UHGV virus genome: UHGV-0225063 | Origin: a virus | Direction: 5' to 3' (one strand) | Length of the DNA: 37,092 nt | In this document: positions 4,774 through 33,353 of the stretch, piece by piece | Layout of the letters: each line of letters begins with the position of its first letter | Numbering within the stretch: position 1 is the first letter of the stretch | Translations under genes and position numbers: made by a program | The notes under the pieces: generated by a model | Told to the model about the DNA's origin: nothing | The model's input: the letters and a program-made list of their open reading frames with translations, nothing else | Database searches by the model: none

Positions 4774-5801
4774 CCTAAATATCCCTTGTCAATTGTAGCT
4801 TTGCTTAGAATTTCTTTGCCACCTTTAGCCAGGCAAAGCAGGTCCATATACCACGCCTGCCCTCGGGTGTCGCCAGTATAATCAATGCTGCCCACAATGT
4901 AATCACCGTCAGTATTAATGCTGGCAGGCTGTGACATGCCTGGCAGACCGTTAACGTAGAGATTACCGTCGCTTTCAGACTCATCCAGTCGTGCTGGCGA
5001 TTTCGCTACCTGGTCATTACTCAAAGAGGCACGGTATACAGATGCCTGATCCAGACGAATAAGCCCACCGAGCTTAATATTTGGATTAATCAGACATCTG
5101 ACATTTACGCCAGCTCCCATCGTCTGCTGTGGCATACCGATAAGCCCGGTGTTAGCATTCAACACCGTAGCAACACCAATATATTTATCTTCAGGAACAA
5201 TATTTACCAGATTATTTTCATACCACCAGTTAGCCTTACACTGCCCTGCGATATGATTCATCAACCTTGATGTGTTTTGATAAACAACACGACCCCGGGG
5301 AAATACCGTTTCAGGCATGTCAGGAACTGCGCCGGATTCGATGCCATATGGTTCGAATGATTTCATACCCAGACTGAAAAGATCGCTGTACTTCCAGCCA
5401 GCAGCCACTGTGGTTTTCACACTTGCGTTCAGGTGACCTTCCCAGCTGTCAATACACTGCAACATGATCCAACTGTCTGTGGCATTATCTTTACCAGTGA
5501 CAGTAAAACGGATATCTCCATTGAATATCATGCCAACGTTTTCATCAGGATAATTACCTGCTGCATCCGGTTGCCCCTTGTATCCGGCAATAACCTGTAT
5601 ACGCGAAAACTCCTTCTGCATAATCCGGTTCTGAGTGGTAGGAGACAGGTTATAAACCTTAAAATTCCCAACGAATCCATTAAATATGGTCGCAGGCATT
5701 TTCTGAATATTGAAAGTGACTTTAAGCTCAGAAATTTTTATCCCGTCGCCCTTATCATCAACAAGCAATAATTCAAAGTGACGCATCCAGTTTTTCGACA
5801 T
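4770..5801 (-). CDS. Baseplate hub-like tail protein
   Basis: 343-aa ORF between the tape-measure-proximal genes and the V-like spike; assigned by position only. Confidence 0.45.
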   Translation of the reverse strand: MSKNWMRHFELLLVDDKGDGIKISELKVTFNIQKMPATIFNGFVGNFKVYNLSPTTQNRIMQKEFSRIQVIAGYKGQPDAAGNYPDENVGMIFNGDIRFTVTGKDNATDSWIMLQCIDSWEGHLNASVKTTVAAGWKYSDLFSLGMKSFEPYGIESGAVPDMPETVFPRGRVVYQNTSRLMNHIAGQCKANWWYENNLVNIVPEDKYIGVATVLNANTGLIGMPQQTMGAGVNVRCLINPNIKLGGLIRLDQASVYRASLSNDQVAKSPARLDESESDGNLYVNGLPGMSQPASINTDGDYIVGSIDYTGDTRGQAWYMDLLCLAKGGKEILSKATIDKGYLG

Positions 5802-23402: not shown

Positions 23403-23897
23403 TCAATGCCGCTTGGATACGGTAGTAAACATCCGTCGAGGACTGATGAACGGCCGCCAAATCAGCAGCATGGAGCCTTTGCTGTTTCCCTTCTTCTCCA
23501 GCCCCGTCGATGGTTCGATAAAATTAATCCGTCCATCAGTGATAATGCGAACTTCGTCGACACTCTCCAGAGCCTTGCTGAACCATCCGACTGACATATC
23601 CTCTGGCACAAGCATAACTACCGTCTGTCGCTGTTGTATGCACTGCTCAGCGGCTTTTTCCACCCACGGCCTGATATTGCTGTACGGTGGGTTATTCCAG
23701 ATTGCACCGTGGCTTACCCACTCAGAATTGAGCGCGTCGTCGACCTCAGTTAGCCAGTGAGCGCACAGAGCGTTTTTGTCGCTCGCAGCTGAATCCAGCC
23801 AGAATCCAAACTCAATATCCAGTGCATCAAAAAGCCAAAGCGGCGTTTGCCAGCAGTCTCTAACTTCTTTTGGTGTTTCTGATTTATGCTTAATCAT
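23403..23897 (-). CDS. DNA N6-adenine methyltransferase (phage Dam-type, orphan)
   Basis: 164 aa with an NPPY catalytic motif ([10 protein letters not shown]) and an N-terminal region typical of phage Dam methylases; no adjacent restriction gene. Confidence 0.7.
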
Positions 23898-24441
23898 TCA
23901 ACCCTCGCATATTGTCCGTGATATTAGCCTCACTGGCAACCAAACCAGCAAGCTCAAGATCTTCATAGAACCCAAAATGCAACCGGCCAAAATCTGTGCG
24001 CACTTGAACGGCCCATTTATTTTTTTGCTTGTTCCATAAAACATTTTTTATTCCAGAACGGCTATTGCACTTAGTTTTCTGATTTCGGCTGTTTGCTATC
24101 CGGTTTGCCTCCCTAAGATTTTTTGGGGAATTGTCCAGCCTGTTTCCGTTAATATGGTCAATATTTTTCAATGGCATTCTTTTGTTGTGCAGCGCAAAAA
24201 CAACTACGTGAACAAACATCTGAATGCCTGCAAAACACACCTGTCTATACCCAGATCCATTTATCGATGTTTTAATTTCATCTCCGGCCCGGTGGCTGTG
24301 GTTGGGGTGTTTTAGCGAGTCCTTTTTGTATCTGACTGTATCTCCGTCTAAATACAGATAATCCTCAATAAGCCGATACCTATCTGACGCTGGTGTATTT
24401 GATTTGATAGTCATGCAGCCTTCCCTTTTCGTTGTGACCAT
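23890..24441 (-). CDS. HNH homing-type endonuclease with AP2-like DNA-binding domain
   Basis: 183 aa; HNH motif IDHINGNRLDNSPKNLR and an AP2-like segment WNKQKNKWAVQVRTDFGRLHFGFYEDLELAG. Confidence 0.7.
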   Translation of the reverse strand: MVTTKREGCMTIKSNTPASDRYRLIEDYLYLDGDTVRYKKDSLKHPNHSHRAGDEIKTSINGSGYRQVCFAGIQMFVHVVVFALHNKRMPLKNIDHINGNRLDNSPKNLREANRIANSRNQKTKCNSRSGIKNVLWNKQKNKWAVQVRTDFGRLHFGFYEDLELAGLVASEANITDNMRGLND

Positions 24442-24857
24442 TCATACTCTCGCCGGGAGTCATCACTCCACCGCACGTTGCGCTCTGAGCCGAACCAGAA
24501 CATGATTTCGATAAGCTCAGTCATGCTGGCCTTTCGCATTTTGCTGGTACGCACGCCAAGCATGACAACGCCACCGTCGATACCAGGAACACTTCGTTGC
24601 TCCAGTTTTTTGGTCTTAAGCCACAGGGCAGTGAACAGGTCTTTCCAGTCTTCCGGTGCCAGCCGTTGACCATGCCATAGCACCTGACGCGAAACATCGT
24701 TCAGCATCGGCCACATACGGTCATTCTGCGCTTTGCTGCGTTTGGGTTCTTTAAGGTGGACTTCGTGGGGTGACTTGTCGTCGATGGGAAGTGAGAGTAT
24801 TGCGTCTATGGCGTTATTTCTGATTGCTTCGTTGCGAAGCATGTATATTTGCTTCAT
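24411..24857 (-). CDS. ninB: NinB (Orf-family recombination mediator)
   Basis: 148 aa; conserved stretches (QNDRMWPMLNDVSRQVLWHGQRL...WSDDSRREYEW...AA) parallel lambda NinB as recalled. Confidence 0.8.
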   Translation of the reverse strand: MKQIYMLRNEAIRNNAIDAILSLPIDDKSPHEVHLKEPKRSKAQNDRMWPMLNDVSRQVLWHGQRLAPEDWKDLFTALWLKTKKLEQRSVPGIDGGVVMLGVRTSKMRKASMTELIEIMFWFGSERNVRWSDDSRREYEWSQRKGKAA

Positions 24858-25201: not shown

Positions 25202-25492
25202 TCATCTTTTAACTCCATATACCGCCAATACCCGTTTCATCGCTGCACTCTGGCGACACTCCTTAAAAATCAGGTTCGTGCTCACCTTTCCTTCCCGTTC
25301 TTCCCTGGTAGCAAACCGGTAATACACCGTTCGCCAGACCTTACCATCAATGACCAGGATTCCTGCCCGCGCCATTTTAGCCGCAGCCTGATTTATGCTG
25401 GTTACTGTTGCGCCTGTTAGCGCGGCAACGTCCGGCGCACAGAAGCTATTATGCGTCCCCAGGTAATGAATAATTGCCTCTTTGCCCGTCAT
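25202..25492 (-). CDS. ren: Ren (resistance to Rex exclusion)
   Basis: 96 aa, near-identical to lambda Ren as recalled (MTGKEAIIHYLGTHNSFCAPDVAALTGATV...). Confidence 0.9.
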   Translation of the reverse strand: MTGKEAIIHYLGTHNSFCAPDVAALTGATVTSINQAAAKMARAGILVIDGKVWRTVYYRFATREEREGKVSTNLIFKECRQSAAMKRVLAVYGVKR

Positions 25493-26190
25493 ACACTTGC
25501 TCCTTTCAGTCCGAACTTAGCTTTAATTTCTGCGATCTTCGCCAGCGCCTGAACACGATTTAGAGGTCTGCCGCCCATGACAGGAAGTTGTTTTACTGGT
25601 TCAGGTATCGTCTCACCACGGTTAATTCGCGCTGTCATACAGGTCAGTTCATCGGCAGCCTTGCGTCGTAATTCCGCGTCAGTCAGCGCATTGGCCCGCA
25701 TGTTCTGGTACAGGTTGGTAACCAGCCAGTAGTGCGCGTTCGATTTCCACGGATAAGACTCTGCATCCGGATACAGGCCTCGCTTCCGGCAATACTCGTA
25801 AACCATATCAACCAGCTCGCTGACGTTTGGCAGTCCGGCGATAACGGATGCTTCTTCCCGGCACCATGCAACAAACTGCCCGGGTGATGGAAGAAATGGT
25901 CGATTCTGCCGACGGGCTACGCGCATTCCTGCGTTAACCTGTTCCATCGAGGTGATCCCGTTTTCCCGGAAAGCCAGAACCCACTGGCGGCGGATTTCAT
26001 TCAGTTCGTTCTGGTCCCGGTTAGCCAGACTCGCCGGGAAAGTTGCCAGTAACTGGCTGAACACACCGTTGATGATCTGCGCTACCTGTTGTACCTGCGG
26101 CTTTTCGTCGTACTGTTCCGGCATGTTGTTGGCGATCCGACGCATCTGCTCACGGTCAAAGTTAACCATCTGTGCGGCGATGTTTTTCAT
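25489..26190 (-). CDS. P: Replication protein P (DnaB helicase loader)
   Basis: 233 aa, near-identical to lambda P as recalled (MKNIAAQMVNFDREQMRRIANNMPEQYDEKPQ...). Confidence 0.95.
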   Translation of the reverse strand: MKNIAAQMVNFDREQMRRIANNMPEQYDEKPQVQQVAQIINGVFSQLLATFPASLANRDQNELNEIRRQWVLAFRENGITSMEQVNAGMRVARRQNRPFLPSPGQFVAWCREEASVIAGLPNVSELVDMVYEYCRKRGLYPDAESYPWKSNAHYWLVTNLYQNMRANALTDAELRRKAADELTCMTARINRGETIPEPVKQLPVMGGRPLNRVQALAKIAEIKAKFGLKGASV

Positions 26191-27125
26191 AAATCCACCC
26201 CGTAAATCCAGTCAGTGTTTGTCAGGTCGAGTTTTGGTTTTCCAGCTGTCACGCCAGCCTGTTGCTTGTTACGGTTGATTTCGAGCTGGGTCCACTTGTC
26301 GCGGAGTTTGGCCGGACTTAGCACGTTACCGGACCAGAAGTTGTCCTGGCATGCCCAGCGGAACAGCACGCACATGTCGCGGTGGTTACGTCCGTCACGT
26401 TCACGCATCAGGCGGATATCGTTAGCCCACCCTGCAAAATTCGGTTTTCTGGCTGATGGTGCGATGGTCTTCACCATGTCAAACATCCACTCTGCGGCGG
26501 TCAGGTCTTCTGCTGTTCCCCACTTGCTGCCGCTCTGAATTGCAGCATCCGGTTTAACCACAGAAAGATCGTTTTCTGGCTGGTCAGAGGATTCGCCAGA
26601 ATTCTCGGACGAATAATCTTTTCTTTTTTCTTTTGTAATAGTGTCTTTTGTGTCCCCCTGTTTTGAGGGATAGCAATCCCCTAATTTGAGGGATGTTTTA
26701 TCCCTCGTTTTAGGGGATTTTCCCTCGTTTTGAGGGATGTCCCTCATTTTAGGGGAACCTCCCTCGTTTTGAGGGATGCACCATTCTGAGATGTTTTTAT
26801 TTGGTCCAAACATGCCGCCTTGCTGCTTGATAATATTCATTCTGACGAGTTCTAACTTGGCTTCATTGCACCGTTTGACAGGTAACTTTGTAATCTCGCT
26901 AAGTTGAGAATCGGTGATTCTGTCCATTGGTTTATTCCACCCATAGGTTTTACGCAGAATGGCAAGCAGCACTTTAAACTGTCGCTTGGTCAGATCTGCG
27001 CCTGAATAAGCCTCAATCAGCATATTTGATAGTCTGGCGTAACCATCATCGAGATCTGCCACATTACGCTCCTGTTTGGCAAAGTTACCTCTGCAGAAGT
27101 TGAGTATTTTTGCTGTATTTGTCAT
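26187..27125 (-). CDS. O: Replication initiator O
   Basis: 312 aa, near-identical to lambda O as recalled, with a 13-aa insertion (GSPKMRDIPQNEG) in the iteron-encoded linker. Confidence 0.95.
   Translation of the reverse strand: MTNTAKILNFCRGNFAKQERNVADLDDGYARLSNMLIEAYSGADLTKRQFKVLLAILRKTYGWNKPMDRITDSQLSEITKLPVKRCNEAKLELVRMNIIKQQGGMFGPNKNISEWCIPQNEGGSPKMRDIPQNEGKSPKTRDKTSLKLGDCYPSKQGDTKDTITKEKRKDYSSENSGESSDQPENDLSVVKPDAAIQSGSKWGTAEDLTAAEWMFDMVKTIAPSARKPNFAGWANDIRLMRERDGRNHRDMCVLFRWACQDNFWSGNVLSPAKLRDKWTQLEINRNKQQAGVTAGKPKLDLTNTDWIYGVDL
26652..26777. repeat. ori-lambda-type iteron array, six ~19-bp repeats
   Basis: Six tandem copies of the TCCCTCGTTTTGAGGGAT consensus counted in the sequence; an AT-rich tract lies at about 26610-26650. 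Confidence 0.8.
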
Positions 27126-27542: not shown

Positions 27543-27588
27543 TCGCTTTGTCAGCGACGTAGGACGAATGTCCATTGTGAAAAGAGCG
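27543..27588 (-). promoter_or_regulatory. nutR-like site: boxA-like CGCTCTTTT plus boxB hairpin TCGCTGACAAAGCGA
   Basis: Read on the minus strand in the cro-cII interval; the boxB loop/stem matches the one downstream of pL. Confidence 0.45.
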
Positions 27589-27595
27589 GTGTTAC

Positions 27596-27796
27596 TTATG
27601 CAGTTGTTTTTTTGTTACTTGGGAAGGGCTTTATTTCTTCCGCATAAACGCTTCCATCAGCGTTTATAGTTAAAAAAATCTTTCGGCCTGCATGAATGGC
27701 CTTGTTAATCGCGCTTTGATATACGCCGAGATCTTTAGCCGTCTTGGTTTGCCCAAAGCGTATTGCATAATCTTTCAGGGTTATGCGTTGTTCCAT
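27596..27796 (-). CDS. cro: Cro repressor
   Basis: 66 aa, near-identical to lambda Cro as recalled ([42 protein letters not shown]...). Confidence 0.95.
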
Positions 27797-27820
27797 ACAA
27801 CCTCCTTAGTACAGGCAATC

Positions 27821-27890
27821 ATTATCACCGCTAGAGGTATAATAGTCAACACGCACGGTGTTAGATATTTATCCCTTGCGGTGATAGATT
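27821..27890. promoter_or_regulatory. Right operator: OR1 (27823-27839), OR2 (27847-27863), OR3 (27870-27886), with divergent pR (minus) and pRM (plus)
   Basis: Three 17-bp lambda-type operators; pR -35 TTGACT and -10 GATAAT on the minus strand; pRM -35 TAGATA and -10 TAGATT on the plus strand with leaderless cI. Confidence 0.85.
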
Positions 27891-27893
27891 TAA

Positions 27894-28610
<717 letters not shown>

Positions 28611-28709
28611 TGTGACTGCATGTAATTTATCAAAAGCGCACATACCCTATGCTAAACAACTTACTGATTAATTTACTGAAAATCATTTATTAAAAAATAA
28701 GGATTGCCA

Positions 28710-29561
28710 ATGAATTTTTCGGAAGAAAAAAATAAAGATTTCCCCAAAAAAGTACAAACTTCGCTATTTGAAGTAGATTGTAATGACGGATGCTCATTTG
28801 TAGATGTCTTGAAGACATGCGAAAATTTCAAACAAAACTATGACTTTGAGTACTCTAACGACACTCGGGCAAGGATAAAAAGTCTAATAGTTAACGATGA
28901 CCAAATCTTTGCTGGGATAACACTCTATGAGCCCAAAGCTTTGGTCCCGGTAACTCCAAAAGATGGAGACCATAACGATTTGCAGGATGTAGATAATTAT
29001 GATAAATGCCATATATTCTTGCTTGCAACAGAAAGCAATATTCTAACAATTTTTCAACTATCAGGAACTCATCCTTTATCTAAGTTAAAAAAAATATTTA
29101 GCCTCATGAATATCAATGTGAATATTTCTGAGAAACTCAACAAAGATGCACTTGGCAAGATAATAAAAGATGGAATACGCTCCATCAGCCTAAGTATTGA
29201 AACAACAAAAGAAGATCTAGAAGAGGCAAAAGCAACATCATTAGGTATCACTGGAAAAGCTAAAGAAGCTTTATCAAGATTATTTGATAAAGAGCAAGAT
29301 GATGACAACTCTTTCTATGGGCTTCTGACTCTTGACAAGAGACATAACCCAAAACTCTTAAATATTGCGAACAAAAATCCAAGCCTGATCATTGATGAAT
29401 TATCGGAAGAGTTCTTCATCACAACATCAAAAGGCCAAGCGATCAAAAGCTCTGAAATCAAAACAAAAAAAGATTATTACACAAGAAAGTATGGCTCTAC
29501 CACCATAAAAGCGGAACACGCTAAGGAAATTCTTGAGCACTTCAAGGATTTCATACTATAA
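28710..29561 (+). CDS. Unknown soluble protein (~284 aa), first gene of the cassette in the rexA position
   Basis: ATG at 28710 with an AAGGA Shine-Dalgarno (the ORF-track start at 28704 is a TTG); about 28% GC over the first 60 nt; no motif I recognise. Confidence 0.6.
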   Translation: MNFSEEKNKDFPKKVQTSLFEVDCNDGCSFVDVLKTCENFKQNYDFEYSNDTRARIKSLIVNDDQIFAGITLYEPKALVPVTPKDGDHNDLQDVDNYDKCHIFLLATESNILTIFQLSGTHPLSKLKKIFSLMNINVNISEKLNKDALGKIIKDGIRSISLSIETTKEDLEEAKATSLGITGKAKEALSRLFDKEQDDDNSFYGLLTLDKRHNPKLLNIANKNPSLIIDELSEEFFITTSKGQAIKSSEIKTKKDYYTRKYGSTTIKAEHAKEILEHFKDFIL

Positions 29562-29598
29562 TGGAGGGTTGTACGTATAACCAAAGGGGGAGGTATGA

Positions 29599-30090
29599 AT
29601 GAGAGGTAAAGATTGGAGTTATATTTTTTCCATAATCTTTTTTATCTGCCTTTCTCTTGTATTAACTTATTATTTACATGATAAGGTTAGATATAACAAA
29701 GAGTTGCTTGGACTTGTGGCAAATATATTTTCAATATTAACAGGGTTTCTGTTACTTGTTATAACCACAAGTGGAGACGTAGCATCGTTTACAGAAGGTA
29801 AATCAAGATCAGAAAAGTATGCAACTAAGAGGAAATTCGAAATTCGGTTTTCTCGTTACATGATGCTTTTTTACCTCTATCTTACAGTCTTGTGCTTAAT
29901 ATTCTTCTACTACATGCTGCTGCCACCAGGAGACACCAGTAAAATCTTAGCAAGCAAGCCGCCTGTGACCAACCTGAGTCTGGTACTTGAGTTTATTATA
30001 TGCTGGCTAAGCATAATTTCATTTGGATGCTCTTTTTTCATACCAATAAAGCTGAAACAGATTTATAACGAAAAACTCAAGCAACAATAA
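29599..30090 (+). CDS. Unknown four-helix integral membrane protein (163 aa), second gene of the cassette in the rexB position
   Basis: GGGGGAGG Shine-Dalgarno before the ATG; four hydrophobic helices (about residues 8-27, 37-57, 87-108, 128-151); AT-rich. Confidence 0.6.
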   Translation: MRGKDWSYIFSIIFFICLSLVLTYYLHDKVRYNKELLGLVANIFSILTGFLLLVITTSGDVASFTEGKSRSEKYATKRKFEIRFSRYMMLFYLYLTVLCLIFFYYMLLPPGDTSKILASKPPVTNLSLVLEFIICWLSIISFGCSFFIPIKLKQIYNEKLKQQ

Positions 30091-30118
30091 CCCGGCCTCA
30101 GCGCCGGGTTTTCTTTGC
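30089..30118 (+). terminator. Intrinsic terminator (t-imm-like) ending the cI-cassette transcript
   Basis: AACCCGGC-ctcagc-GCCGGGTT followed by TTCTTTG; begins at the stop codon of the membrane-protein gene. Confidence 0.6.
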
Positions 30119-30268
30119 CTCACGATCGCCCCACCTAAAAACACATAACCAATTGTATTTGTTGAAAAATAAATAGATACAACTCACTAAACATCGCAAT
30201 TCTGATCTCTCGCCCTCCAAAGCAATACCCCAATTCAAAAAATAAATTCATATAAAAAACATACAGAT

Positions 30269-30331
30269 AACCATCTGCGGTGATGAGTTATCTCTAGCGG
30301 TGTTGACATAAATACCACTAGCGGTGATACT
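30269..30331 (+). promoter_or_regulatory. Left operator and pL: OL3 (30269-30285), OL2 (30289-30305), OL1 (30313-30329); -35 TTGACA (30303-30308), -10 GATACT (30326-30331)
   Basis: Sequence matches the lambda pL/OL region as remembered, with single-base differences. Confidence 0.8.
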
Positions 30332-30399
30332 AAACACATCAGCAGGACGCACCACTCACCAGGGCGGTGAATATACAACGATTCAAATATGAATCTACG

Positions 30400-30579: not shown

Positions 30580-30963
30580 ATGACACGCAGAACTCAGTTC
30601 AAAGGCAATTCACGTTCTCGTCGTCGTGAGCGTTTAAAGGTAAAGGCATTAGCTAACGGCGTACTGGCCCGCGAAGAAGCAATAAGTTCAGAAGTATTAC
30701 ACCGCCCTACTCTAAGCAGAGCGCAGATTCAGGCTAAAGGTACTCACAAAACGCCTGAGCGCATAGAAGACGCTAAGCCAATTAAGTTCATGGCACAGGA
30801 CGTGATCTGGCAACAGAAAGAATACAGACGCAATCTGGAGCGAGCGGCCATTGTGTACGCGAATGAGTTTGGACATAAGCAACCAGAAACTGGTGTATGT
30901 CTTCCAAACGTAGCTCTTTACGCGGCAGGCTATCGGAAATCAAAACAACTGACAGCGAGGTAA
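30580..30963 (+). CDS. N-like early antiterminator (arginine-rich motif; non-lambda, P22 gp24-like)
   Basis: 127 aa; N-terminal arginine-rich motif TRRTQFKGNSRSRRRERLK; first gene downstream of pL/nutL; unlike lambda N. Confidence 0.6.
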   Translation: MTRRTQFKGNSRSRRRERLKVKALANGVLAREEAISSEVLHRPTLSRAQIQAKGTHKTPERIEDAKPIKFMAQDVIWQQKEYRRNLERAAIVYANEFGHKQPETGVCLPNVALYAAGYRKSKQLTAR

Positions 30964-30965
30964 TT

Positions 30966-31265
30966 ATGGATTTAAGTAAATTAGAAAGCTCCTTGGAAGC
31001 ATCAGTAAAAAATTTTATATCAGTAATTGATGAAAAAACTGAAGATATTAAGAAAGCAACTATTGCCGAACTTATTCAAACAAGAGCCAGTACACTTGAA
31101 CATCTTCCTGATGATGTCCGGTCAGCGGCAATTAGCGTATATGTAACGGCACTAAGCAATAGTGAACCCCCAATTGATGAAGAATCAAGAGATATTCAGA
31201 AAAAACGGTTTGAGATGTTAGCCAGCAACATTATCGCTGGCTTTGCAAAGCTTACTTGTTGTTAG
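30966..31265 (+). CDS. Hypothetical acidic protein (99 aa)
   Basis: ATG 3 nt after the N stop with a GAGG Shine-Dalgarno; AT-rich; C-terminal CC dipeptide. Confidence 0.4.
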   Translation: MDLSKLESSLEASVKNFISVIDEKTEDIKKATIAELIQTRASTLEHLPDDVRSAAISVYVTALSNSEPPIDEESRDIQKKRFEMLASNIIAGFAKLTCC

Positions 31266-31434
31266 ATTCTTCCTGAACTTGCTCAAACCTTTCTTTCAAC
31301 TTGTCAAAGGCATTAATGAAAGCAGTTCCGCGATCGCTTGAGTTGTTGAATGCCCCAGCCTTTGCAAGCTCAAGTGCGACCTGATAGGCGGCATGAACTG
31401 GGTACAAAGTTACATCTACATTGTTGCTAGACAT
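31252..31434 (-). CDS. Hypothetical small protein (60 aa), antisense to the pL operon
   Basis: Start at MSSNN with an AAGGA Shine-Dalgarno; convergent with the preceding plus-strand gene; status uncertain. Confidence 0.3.
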   Translation of the reverse strand: MSSNNVDVTLYPVHAAYQVALELAKAGAFNNSSDRGTAFINAFDKLKERFEQVQEESNNK

Positions 31435-31445
31435 AGCATTTCCTT

Positions 31446-31494
31446 CTTTTGACTGTGGAAACAACAGTCTACCCATTTCCTTTGACTGTGGAAA
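31446..31494. repeat. Two direct copies of TTTGACTGTGGAAA spaced 33 bp apart
   Basis: Copies at 31446-31461 and 31479-31494, immediately upstream of the minus-strand small ORF. Confidence 0.4.
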
Positions 31495-31684
31495 GTGAAG
31501 GAACCACCGAGCCTGATGTGGTTAAAAGACAGGCACAATCTTTACTACCGCAATCCACTATTTAAGGTGATATACGGAAGAACAAGCAAACAAGATTCTC
31601 GTAGAACTACTGCAAAAAGCCAGCAATGGAATAGACGCGGCTGTTTCATTTAGCCAGGCACAGATTCCTGATGTTGTTCATCAG

Positions 31685-32023
31685 TTGCTGCTATGGAATA
31701 TGGTTGACAGTCTGATTAAAACATTAATAGCCATTCTAACAATCCCACTGGTTTTCTGGTTTATGAAGAAGCAGTGCCAAAGAGTTGAGACAGGTGAAAT
31801 CGGTGATGAAGGATATTCATGGGAGAAAGGAAATCCCAAATACAGGTCGACAATGGTTTGGGATAGCAAAGGTGATATTAATCTTCTTATCGTGCCATTG
31901 GTTGGAGTTTTGACTCTGTGGGGGGATTTTATTATTGGTGCAGTAACCAATATGACTTGGTTAAAAATTTGGCTGGCCCCAAAGCTTTACCTTATCGAAT
32001 ATGCAGCATCATTGGTTAATTAA
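31685..32023 (+). CDS. Small two-helix membrane protein (hypothetical)
   Basis: 112-aa ORF (the track start is a TTG; an ATG lies 5 codons in); two hydrophobic helices (LIKTLIAILTIPLVFWF and LLIVPLVGVLTLWGDFIIGAV); AT-rich. Confidence 0.45.
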   Translation: MLLWNMVDSLIKTLIAILTIPLVFWFMKKQCQRVETGEIGDEGYSWEKGNPKYRSTMVWDSKGDINLLIVPLVGVLTLWGDFIIGAVTNMTWLKIWLAPKLYLIEYAASLVN

Positions 32024-32063
32024 TTTCAGGCCGCATAATCGGCCTTTATTTTTAAGGAGACAT

Positions 32064-32306
32064 ATGAAAATCAAAACTATGGGCGCAAGCCCATTAAGTG
32101 GTCGTATTTTTCAAGGAACATTAAACACTGAAAAAGGAATGTGGGTGGGAAAGAAAGAAGATGTAACCGAACAGGCAGTTAAGGCAGTAGCTGAACACAT
32201 GATGATAAAAGACCAGAAATATGCATACGGAACGAAGGATGGCAAATGGCTGATAATAAGCCATCAAGTGGTTGATAAATTACCAGAAGAGTTTGTTGCT
32301 GGTTAA
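32064..32306 (+). CDS. Hypothetical small protein (80 aa)
   Basis: ATG preceded by an AAGGAG Shine-Dalgarno; start taken at MKIKT within ORF 32001..32306. Confidence 0.45.
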   Translation: MKIKTMGASPLSGRIFQGTLNTEKGMWVGKKEDVTEQAVKAVAEHMMIKDQKYAYGTKDGKWLIISHQVVDKLPEEFVAG

Positions 32307-32363
32307 ATTTGCTTTGGAATAAGCAACAGAATAAACACTGCACTGAATTATTTGAGGTGAGAT

Positions 32364-32834
32364 ATGACAAAATCATGGAGCGTACCTTTTCCTGAATCAG
32401 AAACTGAACATGATGGAATGCCTGTTTTCTGGAGATTCCAGGCGACAGTTGAAGAAGATGGAATCAAAATATTCGCACTTCAATATATAGCTTTTCATCA
32501 GACAGAGCATTATGCATGGTTGGTTCCTGCGCATTGGATTGTTAATTTTAAACCAGCACCAAATCAGTGGTTACAGGAATGGAAACAAAGGAGAAATAGA
32601 TATGCAATTAAGAAAGTAGCAAAAAATGCAGAAAGATCTTTTGCATTCCCGACGAAGAAACTTGCCATTGAAAGTTTATTGCGCCGGAAGAAATACCATT
32701 TGATGAGAATCAAACAAGATTTGGCTGTTGTATCAACTCTTGTTGATGGGATGAAGAATATTGATACATCAACACCAGATATTGAATATAACTTTGGACA
32801 CAACCAAGAAACAGAAAACTGGGTGTTTTATTAG
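32364..32834 (+). CDS. Hypothetical protein (156 aa)
   Basis: ATG preceded by a GAGGTG Shine-Dalgarno; no recognisable motif. Confidence 0.5.
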   Translation: MTKSWSVPFPESETEHDGMPVFWRFQATVEEDGIKIFALQYIAFHQTEHYAWLVPAHWIVNFKPAPNQWLQEWKQRRNRYAIKKVAKNAERSFAFPTKKLAIESLLRRKKYHLMRIKQDLAVVSTLVDGMKNIDTSTPDIEYNFGHNQETENWVFY

Positions 32835-32938
32835 TACGAATAAGCACTGTGTATTCATTCCAACGAGTGAATACACGGAGCAATGTCGCTCGTAACTAAA
32901 CAGGAGCCGACTTGTTCTGATTATTGGAAATCTTCTTT

Positions 32939-32965
32939 GCCCTCCAAGATGAGGGCGATTTTTTA
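32939..32965 (+). terminator. Intrinsic terminator-like hairpin upstream of ea10
   Basis: GCCCTC-caagat-GAGGGC followed by GATTTTTTAT. Confidence 0.45.
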
Positions 32966-32984
32966 TCTGTGAGGATATGAACAG

Positions 32985-33353
32985 ATGTCAAACATCAAAA
33001 AATACATCATTGATTACGACTGGAAAGCATCAATAGAAATTGAAATCGACCATGACGTAATGACAGAGGAAAAACTTCACCAGATTAATAATTTCTGGTC
33101 AGACTCTGAATACCGACTCAATAAACACGGCTCTGTATTAAATGCTGTATTAATCATGCTGGCGCAACATGCTCTGCTTATAGCAATTTCAAGCGACTTA
33201 AATGCATATGGTGTTGTGTGTGAGTTCGACTGGAATGATGGAAATGGTCAGGAAGGATGGCCTCCAATGGATGGTAGCGAAGGAATAAGAATTACCGATA
33301 TCGATACATCAGGAATATTTGATTCAGATGATATGACTATCAAAGCCGCCTGA
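32985..33353 (+). CDS. ea10: Ea10-like protein
   Basis: 122 aa; same size and position as lambda ea10 (between the N-proximal genes and cIII); sequence appears lambda-like from memory. Confidence 0.65.
   Translation: MSNIKKYIIDYDWKASIEIEIDHDVMTEEKLHQINNFWSDSEYRLNKHGSVLNAVLIMLAQHALLIAISSDLNAYGVVCEFDWNDGNGQEGWPPMDGSEGIRITDIDTSGIFDSDDMTIKAA

Follow-up and report, generated by a model that had tools for sequence, protein, structure and literature searches.

What takes the place of rexA and rexB in a phage that has lambda-like sequence on both sides of the interval where these genes reside in lambda? We examined this question in UHGV virus genome UHGV-0225063, analyzed as a single stretch of 37,092 nucleotides (hereafter, the window). 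Two plus-strand open reading frames (ORFs), gene A and then gene B, follow the repressor gene cI and precede the lambda tImm terminator. A first-pass annotation had described this interval as a two-gene cassette encoding a soluble protein and a four-helix membrane protein, and had proposed it as a candidate Rex-like exclusion system. The ORFs, the hydrophobicity of their products and an AlphaFold2 (AF2) model of B agree with the description, and the proposal was strengthened by the obligate pairing of the two genes, by the accessory sites that they occupy and by a match between the predicted fold of A and RexA. Based on structural models and on analogy to characterized systems, we consider it fairly probable that the interval encodes a divergent RexAB-type two-component phage-exclusion module in place of lambda rexA-rexB. 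No abortive-infection system has been known for longer than Rex, and both what triggers it and how it works are still under debate.

Replacement of lambda rexAB by a mobile gene pair

Matches to lambda delimit the cassette at both ends. Using BLAST, we found that window positions 27582-28611 match lambda 38255-37226 at 96.3% identity (cro, OR and cI), with the match ending 1 nt past the cI stop codon. Similarity returns at 30082-30370, which matches lambda 35833-35550 at 89.6% identity and spans the last 9 nt of rexB, tImm, OL and pL. No BLAST match to lambda was found between 28611 and 30082. The flanks are thus lambda-like, as first annotated, and the suspected cassette replacement is borne out by the exact junctions, which imply that rexAB was replaced exactly, by 1,470 bp here versus the 1,392 bp that contain rexA and rexB in lambda. 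The interval between cI and N is a recognized mosaic hotspot with abortive-infection systems, and carries rexAB and bstA.

Lambda similarity stops at 28611, where a 99-nt AT-rich spacer begins (28611..28709, plus strand); this spacer contains no plus-strand terminator-like site. Gene A (28710..29561, plus strand) is preceded by a ribosome-binding site (RBS), AAGGA, 6 nt ahead of its ATG. It had been listed from a TTG codon at 28704 (28704..29561, 285 aa), and its product was first annotated as 284 aa. We assign the start to the ATG at 28710 because phrog_23561 (E 2e-166) and all homologs begin at MNFSE, which gives a soluble protein of 283 aa with a predicted RexA-like fold and a proposed role as sensor or activator. 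Gene B (29599..30090, plus strand) has a strong RBS (GGGGGAGG) upstream and encodes a 163-aa protein with four transmembrane (TM) helices and a predicted N-in/C-in topology, a proposed inner-membrane effector. The right junction and the intrinsic terminator, lambda tImm, occupy 30082..30118 (plus strand). Here lambda similarity resumes 9 nt before the gene B stop codon, and a G+C-rich hairpin stem (30089-30110) followed by TTCTTT comes directly after gene B. The site at 30089 is the only terminator-like site on the plus strand between cI and pL.

Phages 2G7b and PhiR11_1 carry the same cassette at 99.7% identity, as do 7 of 5,426 complete Escherichia coli genomes. In these copies, the upstream repressor has a different N-terminal half and different operators, and the segment held in common with the window extends from mid-cI to just before OL (28200-30211, 98.8%). 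The mosaic seen in the window is absent from all 5,426 complete E. coli genomes examined.

The cassette has a GC content of 34.5% (34.5% in A and 34.1% in B), whereas cI has 45.4%, the flanks within ±4 kb have 44.6% and the window as a whole has 48.4%. The dip in GC reported in the first-pass annotation is therefore real, and the values given for it (about 28% against roughly 50%) need correction. The A-B pair lies 6-22 GC points under its flanks in every host. Canonical rexAB homologs (three examined) lie 5-12 points under theirs, and lambda rexAB is also lower. Because low GC is family-wide in all hosts and common to canonical rexAB, AT-richness is a trait of such modules rather than a sign of a recent swap, and we rejected it as a mark of recent foreign origin.

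Genes A and B are both real. Full length is kept across Enterobacterales down to ~20–40% identity, and the ratio of nonsynonymous to synonymous substitution rates (dN/dS) is 0.13-0.14 for A and for B, as expected under purifying selection. The A family is scarce, with 18 clusters at E<1e-3 among 1.84 billion representatives, and all members with a named source organism come from Enterobacterales. Relatives of B are slightly more common. Hundreds of contigs from E. coli, E. albertii and Shigella carry variants of A and B, all of them labelled hypothetical.

We fetched 46 IMG/VR loci through B. An A homolog lies directly upstream of B on the same strand in 45 of the 45 testable loci; the remaining locus has B at a contig end that lacks an upstream side. 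Every intact locus has a gap of between -11 and 40 nt from A to B. Pairing is kept even at ~20% identity in A, where B was missed by the gene caller, and the divergences of A and B are tightly correlated (Pearson r = 0.98, 43 distinct pairs). Some records of the pair are irregular. The 2G7b record carries a 132-nt antisense ORF annotated in place of B (5300-5431), and in locus L015 (5895-6383) a 73-aa antisense ORF was called over a clear 162-aa B homolog with a GTG start. In locus L030 (4195-5568) the ORF of the A homolog is just 612 nt long and is followed by a 276-nt gap and then by B, which is intact; the A gene may be disrupted there.

The pair recurs at several genomic sites. The rex position, co-oriented and after an S24-type repressor, is occupied in the window and in at least nine other loci, which include PhiR11_1/2G7b, Citrobacter, Budvicia and other prophages and whose repressors are of different immunity types. 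In about 36 of the 46 loci, the pair is instead found antisense in the interval from the Q antiterminator gene to the lysis genes, with its end 14-52 nt away from Q. Single cases are a satellite-like island in Morganella and a Xenorhabdus locus between a P4-type integrase and a tail-fiber assembly gene. Each of these sites is a classic place for accessory genes in prophages. A and B thus move together from one such site to another, and the cI-N interval and the antisense Q-lysis interval are alternative homes of the same module.

Two features of these other sites may be recorded here. Some 60-75 nt upstream of A, Q-site loci (L007:6090-6110, L042 and L054) have a conserved element with a palindrome in it, TTTTGCGTACGCGTTA, which could be a promoter or operator peculiar to the Q-site niche. 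The Morganella morganii island that contains the pair (L003-L005) also has a DUF927/Toprim primase, and a Csy1-Csy4 (type I-F) set lies a few kilobases off, in the region ~4-8 kb downstream of the pair; no cas1 or cas2-3 was found in the stretch examined.

The two proteins and a candidate exclusion module

Protein A contains no hydrophobic segment. When its predicted model was compared with 48,164 PDB chains, lambda RexA was the single best match, and RdgC, a known structural relative of RexA, was also among the best four. The RexA crystal structure comprises a seven-stranded globular domain, split in two (amino acids 1-139 plus 248-279), into which a four-strand/four-helix dimerization domain (143-234) is inserted. 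In the A model, six strands and two helices (13-132) are followed by four strands with four to five helices (137-239) and then, in the C-terminal part, by a seventh strand (253-258) and a helix (268-282). The order and boundaries of these elements agree with the published RexA plan, as compared with the published description at the level of whole elements. Sequence conservation is stronger in the C-terminal 50 residues of A than elsewhere, and the best-conserved stretch (~235-275) coincides, by position only, with the place where RexA has its swivel loop and returns to the globular domain. A also has four significant structural matches in BFVD, one of which (E 1.4e-7) comes from uncultured phage ctylc9. 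Sequence searches with A gave no match in Pfam (its RdgC model included), PADLOC or NCBIfam and no lead from the PDB. Isoelectric point, considered as a discriminator of DNA binding, did not separate the two families: the median is 6.4 among A proteins and 6.7 among RexA proteins.

Taken together, the model-based comparisons suggest that A is most likely a very remote RexA homolog, seen by fold only. The first-pass annotation had called both genes unrelated to rexAB and had named clear homology of both proteins to RexA/RexB among the grounds for abandoning its proposal. The lack of relatedness holds at the level of sequence, where searches with A and B were negative, and most likely fails for A at the level of fold, which goes part of the way towards those grounds in the case of A.

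Protein B has four hydrophobic segments (8-26, 37-55, 90-108 and 132-150), in line with the membrane topology first proposed for it. Its AF2 model contains four long helices (6-30, 34-62, 70-107 and 125-162) with a predicted local distance difference test score (pLDDT) of 75.7. Lysine and arginine residues cluster at the N-terminus, in the TM2-TM3 loop (eight such residues) and at the C-terminus, and this distribution indicates an N-in/C-in topology; by inspection, the RexB sequence has the same topology pattern. Two motifs are invariant in B. One, ANIFSILTGFLLLVI, lies in TM2 and forms a polar face (A-N-I-F-S-I-L-T-G), and the other, F-x-I-R-F-x-R-Y, comes just before TM3. The best BFVD match of the B structure (E 0.048) is again a protein of phage ctylc9, and the matches to both A and B hint at a still more distant A-B pair in that phage. 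Weak Pfam matches of B (DUF4064, DUF6056 and various permeases) all fall under curated cut-offs and were set aside as generic transmembrane noise. Beyond its size, its four-helix topology and the gene order, nothing ties B to RexB.

Several results weigh against assigning the pair to the Rex systems. First, none of 23 A family members matched the RexA models of Pfam or PADLOC (PF15969 and PDLC02339), and none of 22 B family members matched the corresponding RexB models (PF15968 and PDLC02340). Controls behaved as expected: lambda RexA matched the RexA models at 1e-97 and 9e-110, and the lambda protein was strongly recognized by the RexB models. Second, hhalign runs that ranged from single sequences to family versus family returned probabilities of 0.1-0.5% for A and B, including 0.3% for the A family (23 sequences) against the RexA family (19 sequences) and 0.1% for 31 B sequences against seven RexB sequences. 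Third, the fold match to RexA covers only half of A, in a model of moderate confidence that is disordered at 78-96 and 174-199, and lambda RexA is not among the best 50 matches listed in a Foldseek search of A against BFVD. The B structure gave no significant match in BFVD, and a four-helix membrane bundle is a non-specific shape. Finally, a RexA fold leaves the mechanism unfixed, because RexA has non-defense roles and because the roles of the two proteins are reversed in the Rex-like pair of phage Butters; in the literature, we found nothing relevant on the A/B family or its host phages, and no functional report.

A divergent RexAB-type exclusion module nevertheless remains the reading that we favor, and from the analogy we infer a defense activity of the pair. 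In a lysogen, pRM would drive transcription of A and B along with cI. Protein A, probably as a dimer, would sense a product or a nucleoprotein intermediate of the infecting phage and would then engage and activate B. Activated B would compromise membrane energetics or integrity, so that growth of the infected cell would stop and the superinfecting phage would be aborted. Both what triggers the module and which phages it excludes probably differ from the case of lambda Rex. These steps are modelled on the Rex systems of lambda, Pseudomonas putida and actinophages.

We propose only tentatively a broader view, in which Rex would be only the visible part of a broad superfamily, with A-B in it, of modules that combine a RexA/RdgC-fold sensor with a four-TM effector and are swapped like alleles at two fixed prophage sites, the cI-N interval (transcribed together with the repressor) and the Q-lysis interval (antisense to late transcription). 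Under this proposal, the family would provide functional defense with a trigger and targets unlike those of lambda Rex, and B would not be homologous to RexB. If true, a conserved sensor fold would have recruited B independently as its membrane effector.

The distribution of the pair bears on whether it instead modulates the choice between lysis and lysogeny, with A binding DNA or CI/Cro and stabilizing the lytic state after induction, B tuning this activity, and exclusion absent or incidental. A RexB-independent role of exactly that kind is documented for RexA, the predicted fold of A agrees with it, and the pair resides in the repressor operon in the window and in several homologous loci. 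About 36 of the 46 viral loci, however, place the pair far from the immunity region, and others place it in the satellite-like island or at the tail-fiber end; where it does follow a repressor, the repressors differ in specificity, which argues for a function independent of one CI/Cro pair. Such a frequent site far from the immunity region suggests an autonomous function, and we regard a CI/Cro-specific switch modulator as unlikely.

A reversal of roles, with A as the toxic or antiviral effector and B as a membrane anchor that holds A until infection, has been described for one Rex-like pair (Butters gp30/gp31). The well-conserved C-terminal 50 residues of A could be an interaction or effector surface. 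We nonetheless judge it improbable, given that the membrane protein is the effector in four of the five described Rex-like systems and that the most invariant motifs of the pair (the TM2 polar face and F-x-I-R-F) belong to B, as would fit an active membrane component.

The fold match could also be convergent or a modelling artefact, in which case the pair would have a non-Rex function, for example as a prophage-stabilizing membrane toxin with its partner or as a host-physiology moron. This explanation would accommodate the complete lack of sequence-level support for an A-RexA or a B-RexB relationship and the partial alignment of a partly disordered A model. It accords poorly with the top rank of RexA among the PDB chains compared, with RdgC in the best four, and with the coincidence of modelled domain order and boundaries, protein lengths, gene order, four-helix partner and exact genomic slot with rexAB; we therefore attach little weight to it. 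Envelope superinfection exclusion, in which B would stop DNA entry or another membrane step (compare SieA, Sim and Imm) with A as an accessory and the cell surviving, is very improbable: B is a small polytopic inner-membrane protein at a prophage accessory site, and such sites also carry sie genes, but known injection blockers need no 283-aa cytoplasmic partner with the fold of a DNA-binding protein, and the strict co-inheritance of A and B together with the predicted RexA fold points to intracellular sensing.

A RexAB-type identity would have practical consequences. The cassette is a natural drop-in between the same cI and terminator and could thus be swapped for rexAB through simple recombineering. 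Two very distant versions of one design could then be compared in isogenic form, which could show whether fold, domain hinge and membrane-partner motifs are among the essential features. The pair is hypothetical or mis-annotated in existing records and invisible to Pfam, NCBIfam and PADLOC. Censuses of defense systems that rely on such sequence models would miss A-B, and the annotations examined (Pfam, PADLOC and NCBIfam) would therefore under-count Rex-type systems.

Promoters, neighboring genes and other features of the window

In the window, cro is on the minus strand and cI on the plus strand. The cI gene (27897..28610, plus strand) encodes a 237-aa repressor of lambda type and has 96% nucleotide identity to lambda cI. 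The OR/pR/pRM control region (27797..27896) lies between cro and cI, inside the 96.3% match to lambda 38255-37226, and includes a pR-like TTGACT-17-GATAAT sequence at 27849-27821 on the minus strand. By homology to lambda, pRM is the presumed promoter of a cI-A-B transcript. No promoter of the cassette's own was found; neither the upstream regions nor the spacer are conserved across contexts. A promoter-like sequence, TTGAGC-18-TATAAT (29533..29562, plus strand), overlaps the gene A stop codon 36 nt before gene B and is, by analogy, a possible counterpart of pLIT, the lambda rexB promoter. This site holds its place in the close rex-site clade alone, overlapping conserved coding sequence there; family-wide, pLIT-like sites are not enriched (11 of 41 loci versus 16% in shuffles).

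The OL operators and pL (TTGACA-17-GATACT) occupy 30270..30340 (plus strand), with pL at 30303-30331, and read away from the cassette, towards N (30580-30963). The N gene belongs to the N_peptide family and is not lambda N; the match to lambda gives out at 30370, immediately beyond pL. This makes the phage an imm-lambda hybrid whose nutL/N module is heterologous.

The ren gene (25202..25492, minus strand, 96 aa) adjoins P, and the homologous phages PhiR11_1 and 2G7b have it annotated as Ren. Its presence, which the first-pass annotation had noted alongside the cassette, was confirmed, but little can be drawn from it: ren goes along with the O-P module and is thus not evidence on the cassette. 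No ren was called in the Citrobacter rex-position locus L012, the only one checked that has a different replication module.

We also noted features elsewhere in the window. In the O replication protein (26187-27125, minus strand, 312 aa), a peptide is repeated in tandem, IPQNEGGSPKMRD / IPQNEGKSPKTRD, which presumably reflects additional ori iterons at the coding level. Between ninB (24411-24857) and a Dam-like methyltransferase ORF (23403-23897), there is a 183-aa HNH_3 endonuclease ORF (23890-24441, minus strand; Pfam E 2e-10). It looks like an inserted homing-type endonuclease because ninB abuts the methyltransferase in PhiR11_1 and 2G7b. Downstream of N, a second AT-rich stretch (30850-33300, GC 0.36-0.40) has several small ORFs. 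The small ORFs past N encode a 122-aa protein (30897-31265), a DUF7446 protein (32001-32306), a 156-aa protein (32364-32834) and a DUF2528 protein (32985-33353). We did not recognize sieB at the place in 30850-33300 that corresponds to its position in lambda.

Comparison with known systems

The closest point of reference is lambda RexA/RexB (PF15969/PF15968; PDB 8TWQ), which occupies the same slot, after cI and before tImm, OL and pL. Gene order is the same and sizes are near (283 + 163 aa here versus 279 + 144 aa in lambda). Protein A has a RexA-like predicted fold and, judged by the order and boundaries of its modelled elements, a similar domain plan, and B, like RexB, is a four-helix membrane protein whose predicted termini are cytoplasmic and whose central loop is basic. 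Lambda rexAB is likewise AT-richer than its flanks. There are also differences. Lambda RexA and RexB have no detectable sequence similarity to A or B, even when profile is compared with profile. The TM2-TM3 and TM3-TM4 loops of B are longer than those of RexB, and its invariant motifs are its own. The antisense Q-lysis niche that the A-B family occupies was not seen for canonical rexAB in the three loci examined.

Other candidates were considered and set aside. Identities as a GtrA-type flippase or a holin were rejected on the basis of a lack of model matches and a mismatch in strand or gene order. Kiwa is a two-gene defense system that comprises KwaA, a four-TM membrane protein, and KwaB, a soluble DUF4868 protein of ~300 aa. 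It resembles A-B in pairing a small four-TM protein with a soluble one, but its gene order is reversed. We rejected a Kiwa identity because A, B and their family have no KwaA or KwaB match in Pfam or PADLOC and because the best fold match of A is to RexA, not KwaB.

RdgC, a recombination-associated DNA-binding protein (PDB 2OWL), has a fold score under that of RexA in the comparison with A, and it has no obligate membrane partner. An RdgC identity of A was rejected, since A has no match to the Pfam RdgC model and RdgC is not its best structural neighbor. BstA is a prophage abortive-infection protein located downstream of cI in BTP1-like phages, where it is presumed to share the repressor promoter. 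It occupies the same cI-N hotspot, but it is a single protein of unrelated architecture, and the analogy is one of locus only.

Five Rex-like systems have been described. Among them, actinobacteriophage pairs (Sbash gp30/gp31, CarolAnn gp44/gp43 and Butters gp30/gp31) consist of a soluble and a membrane protein and exclude heterotypic phages. Like A-B, they are two-gene pairs of this layout that sit within the immunity region of a temperate phage or close to it; they differ in that their hosts belong to another phylum and in that Butters shows role reversal. One of the weak structural matches of B is to a 165-aa protein of Sbash (rank 30, E 0.86) and is not significant.

A further parallel is RexABpp (PP_5643/PP_5644) of P. 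putida prophage P1, for which there is experimental support for defense, DNA binding and RexB-dependent membrane damage. HHpred ties PP_5643 to RexA (98%), whereas hhalign does not tie A to RexA. By sequence definition, A and B do not belong to the RexA or RexB families. What we find for A-B is a soluble component with a predicted RexA fold, a four-TM partner directly downstream of it (adjacent in 45 of 45 loci) and, in the window, a site behind a CI-type repressor, with presumed expression in the lysogen. As known here from sequence and models, A-B qualifies as ‘RexAB-type’ at the same in silico level as the P. putida system.

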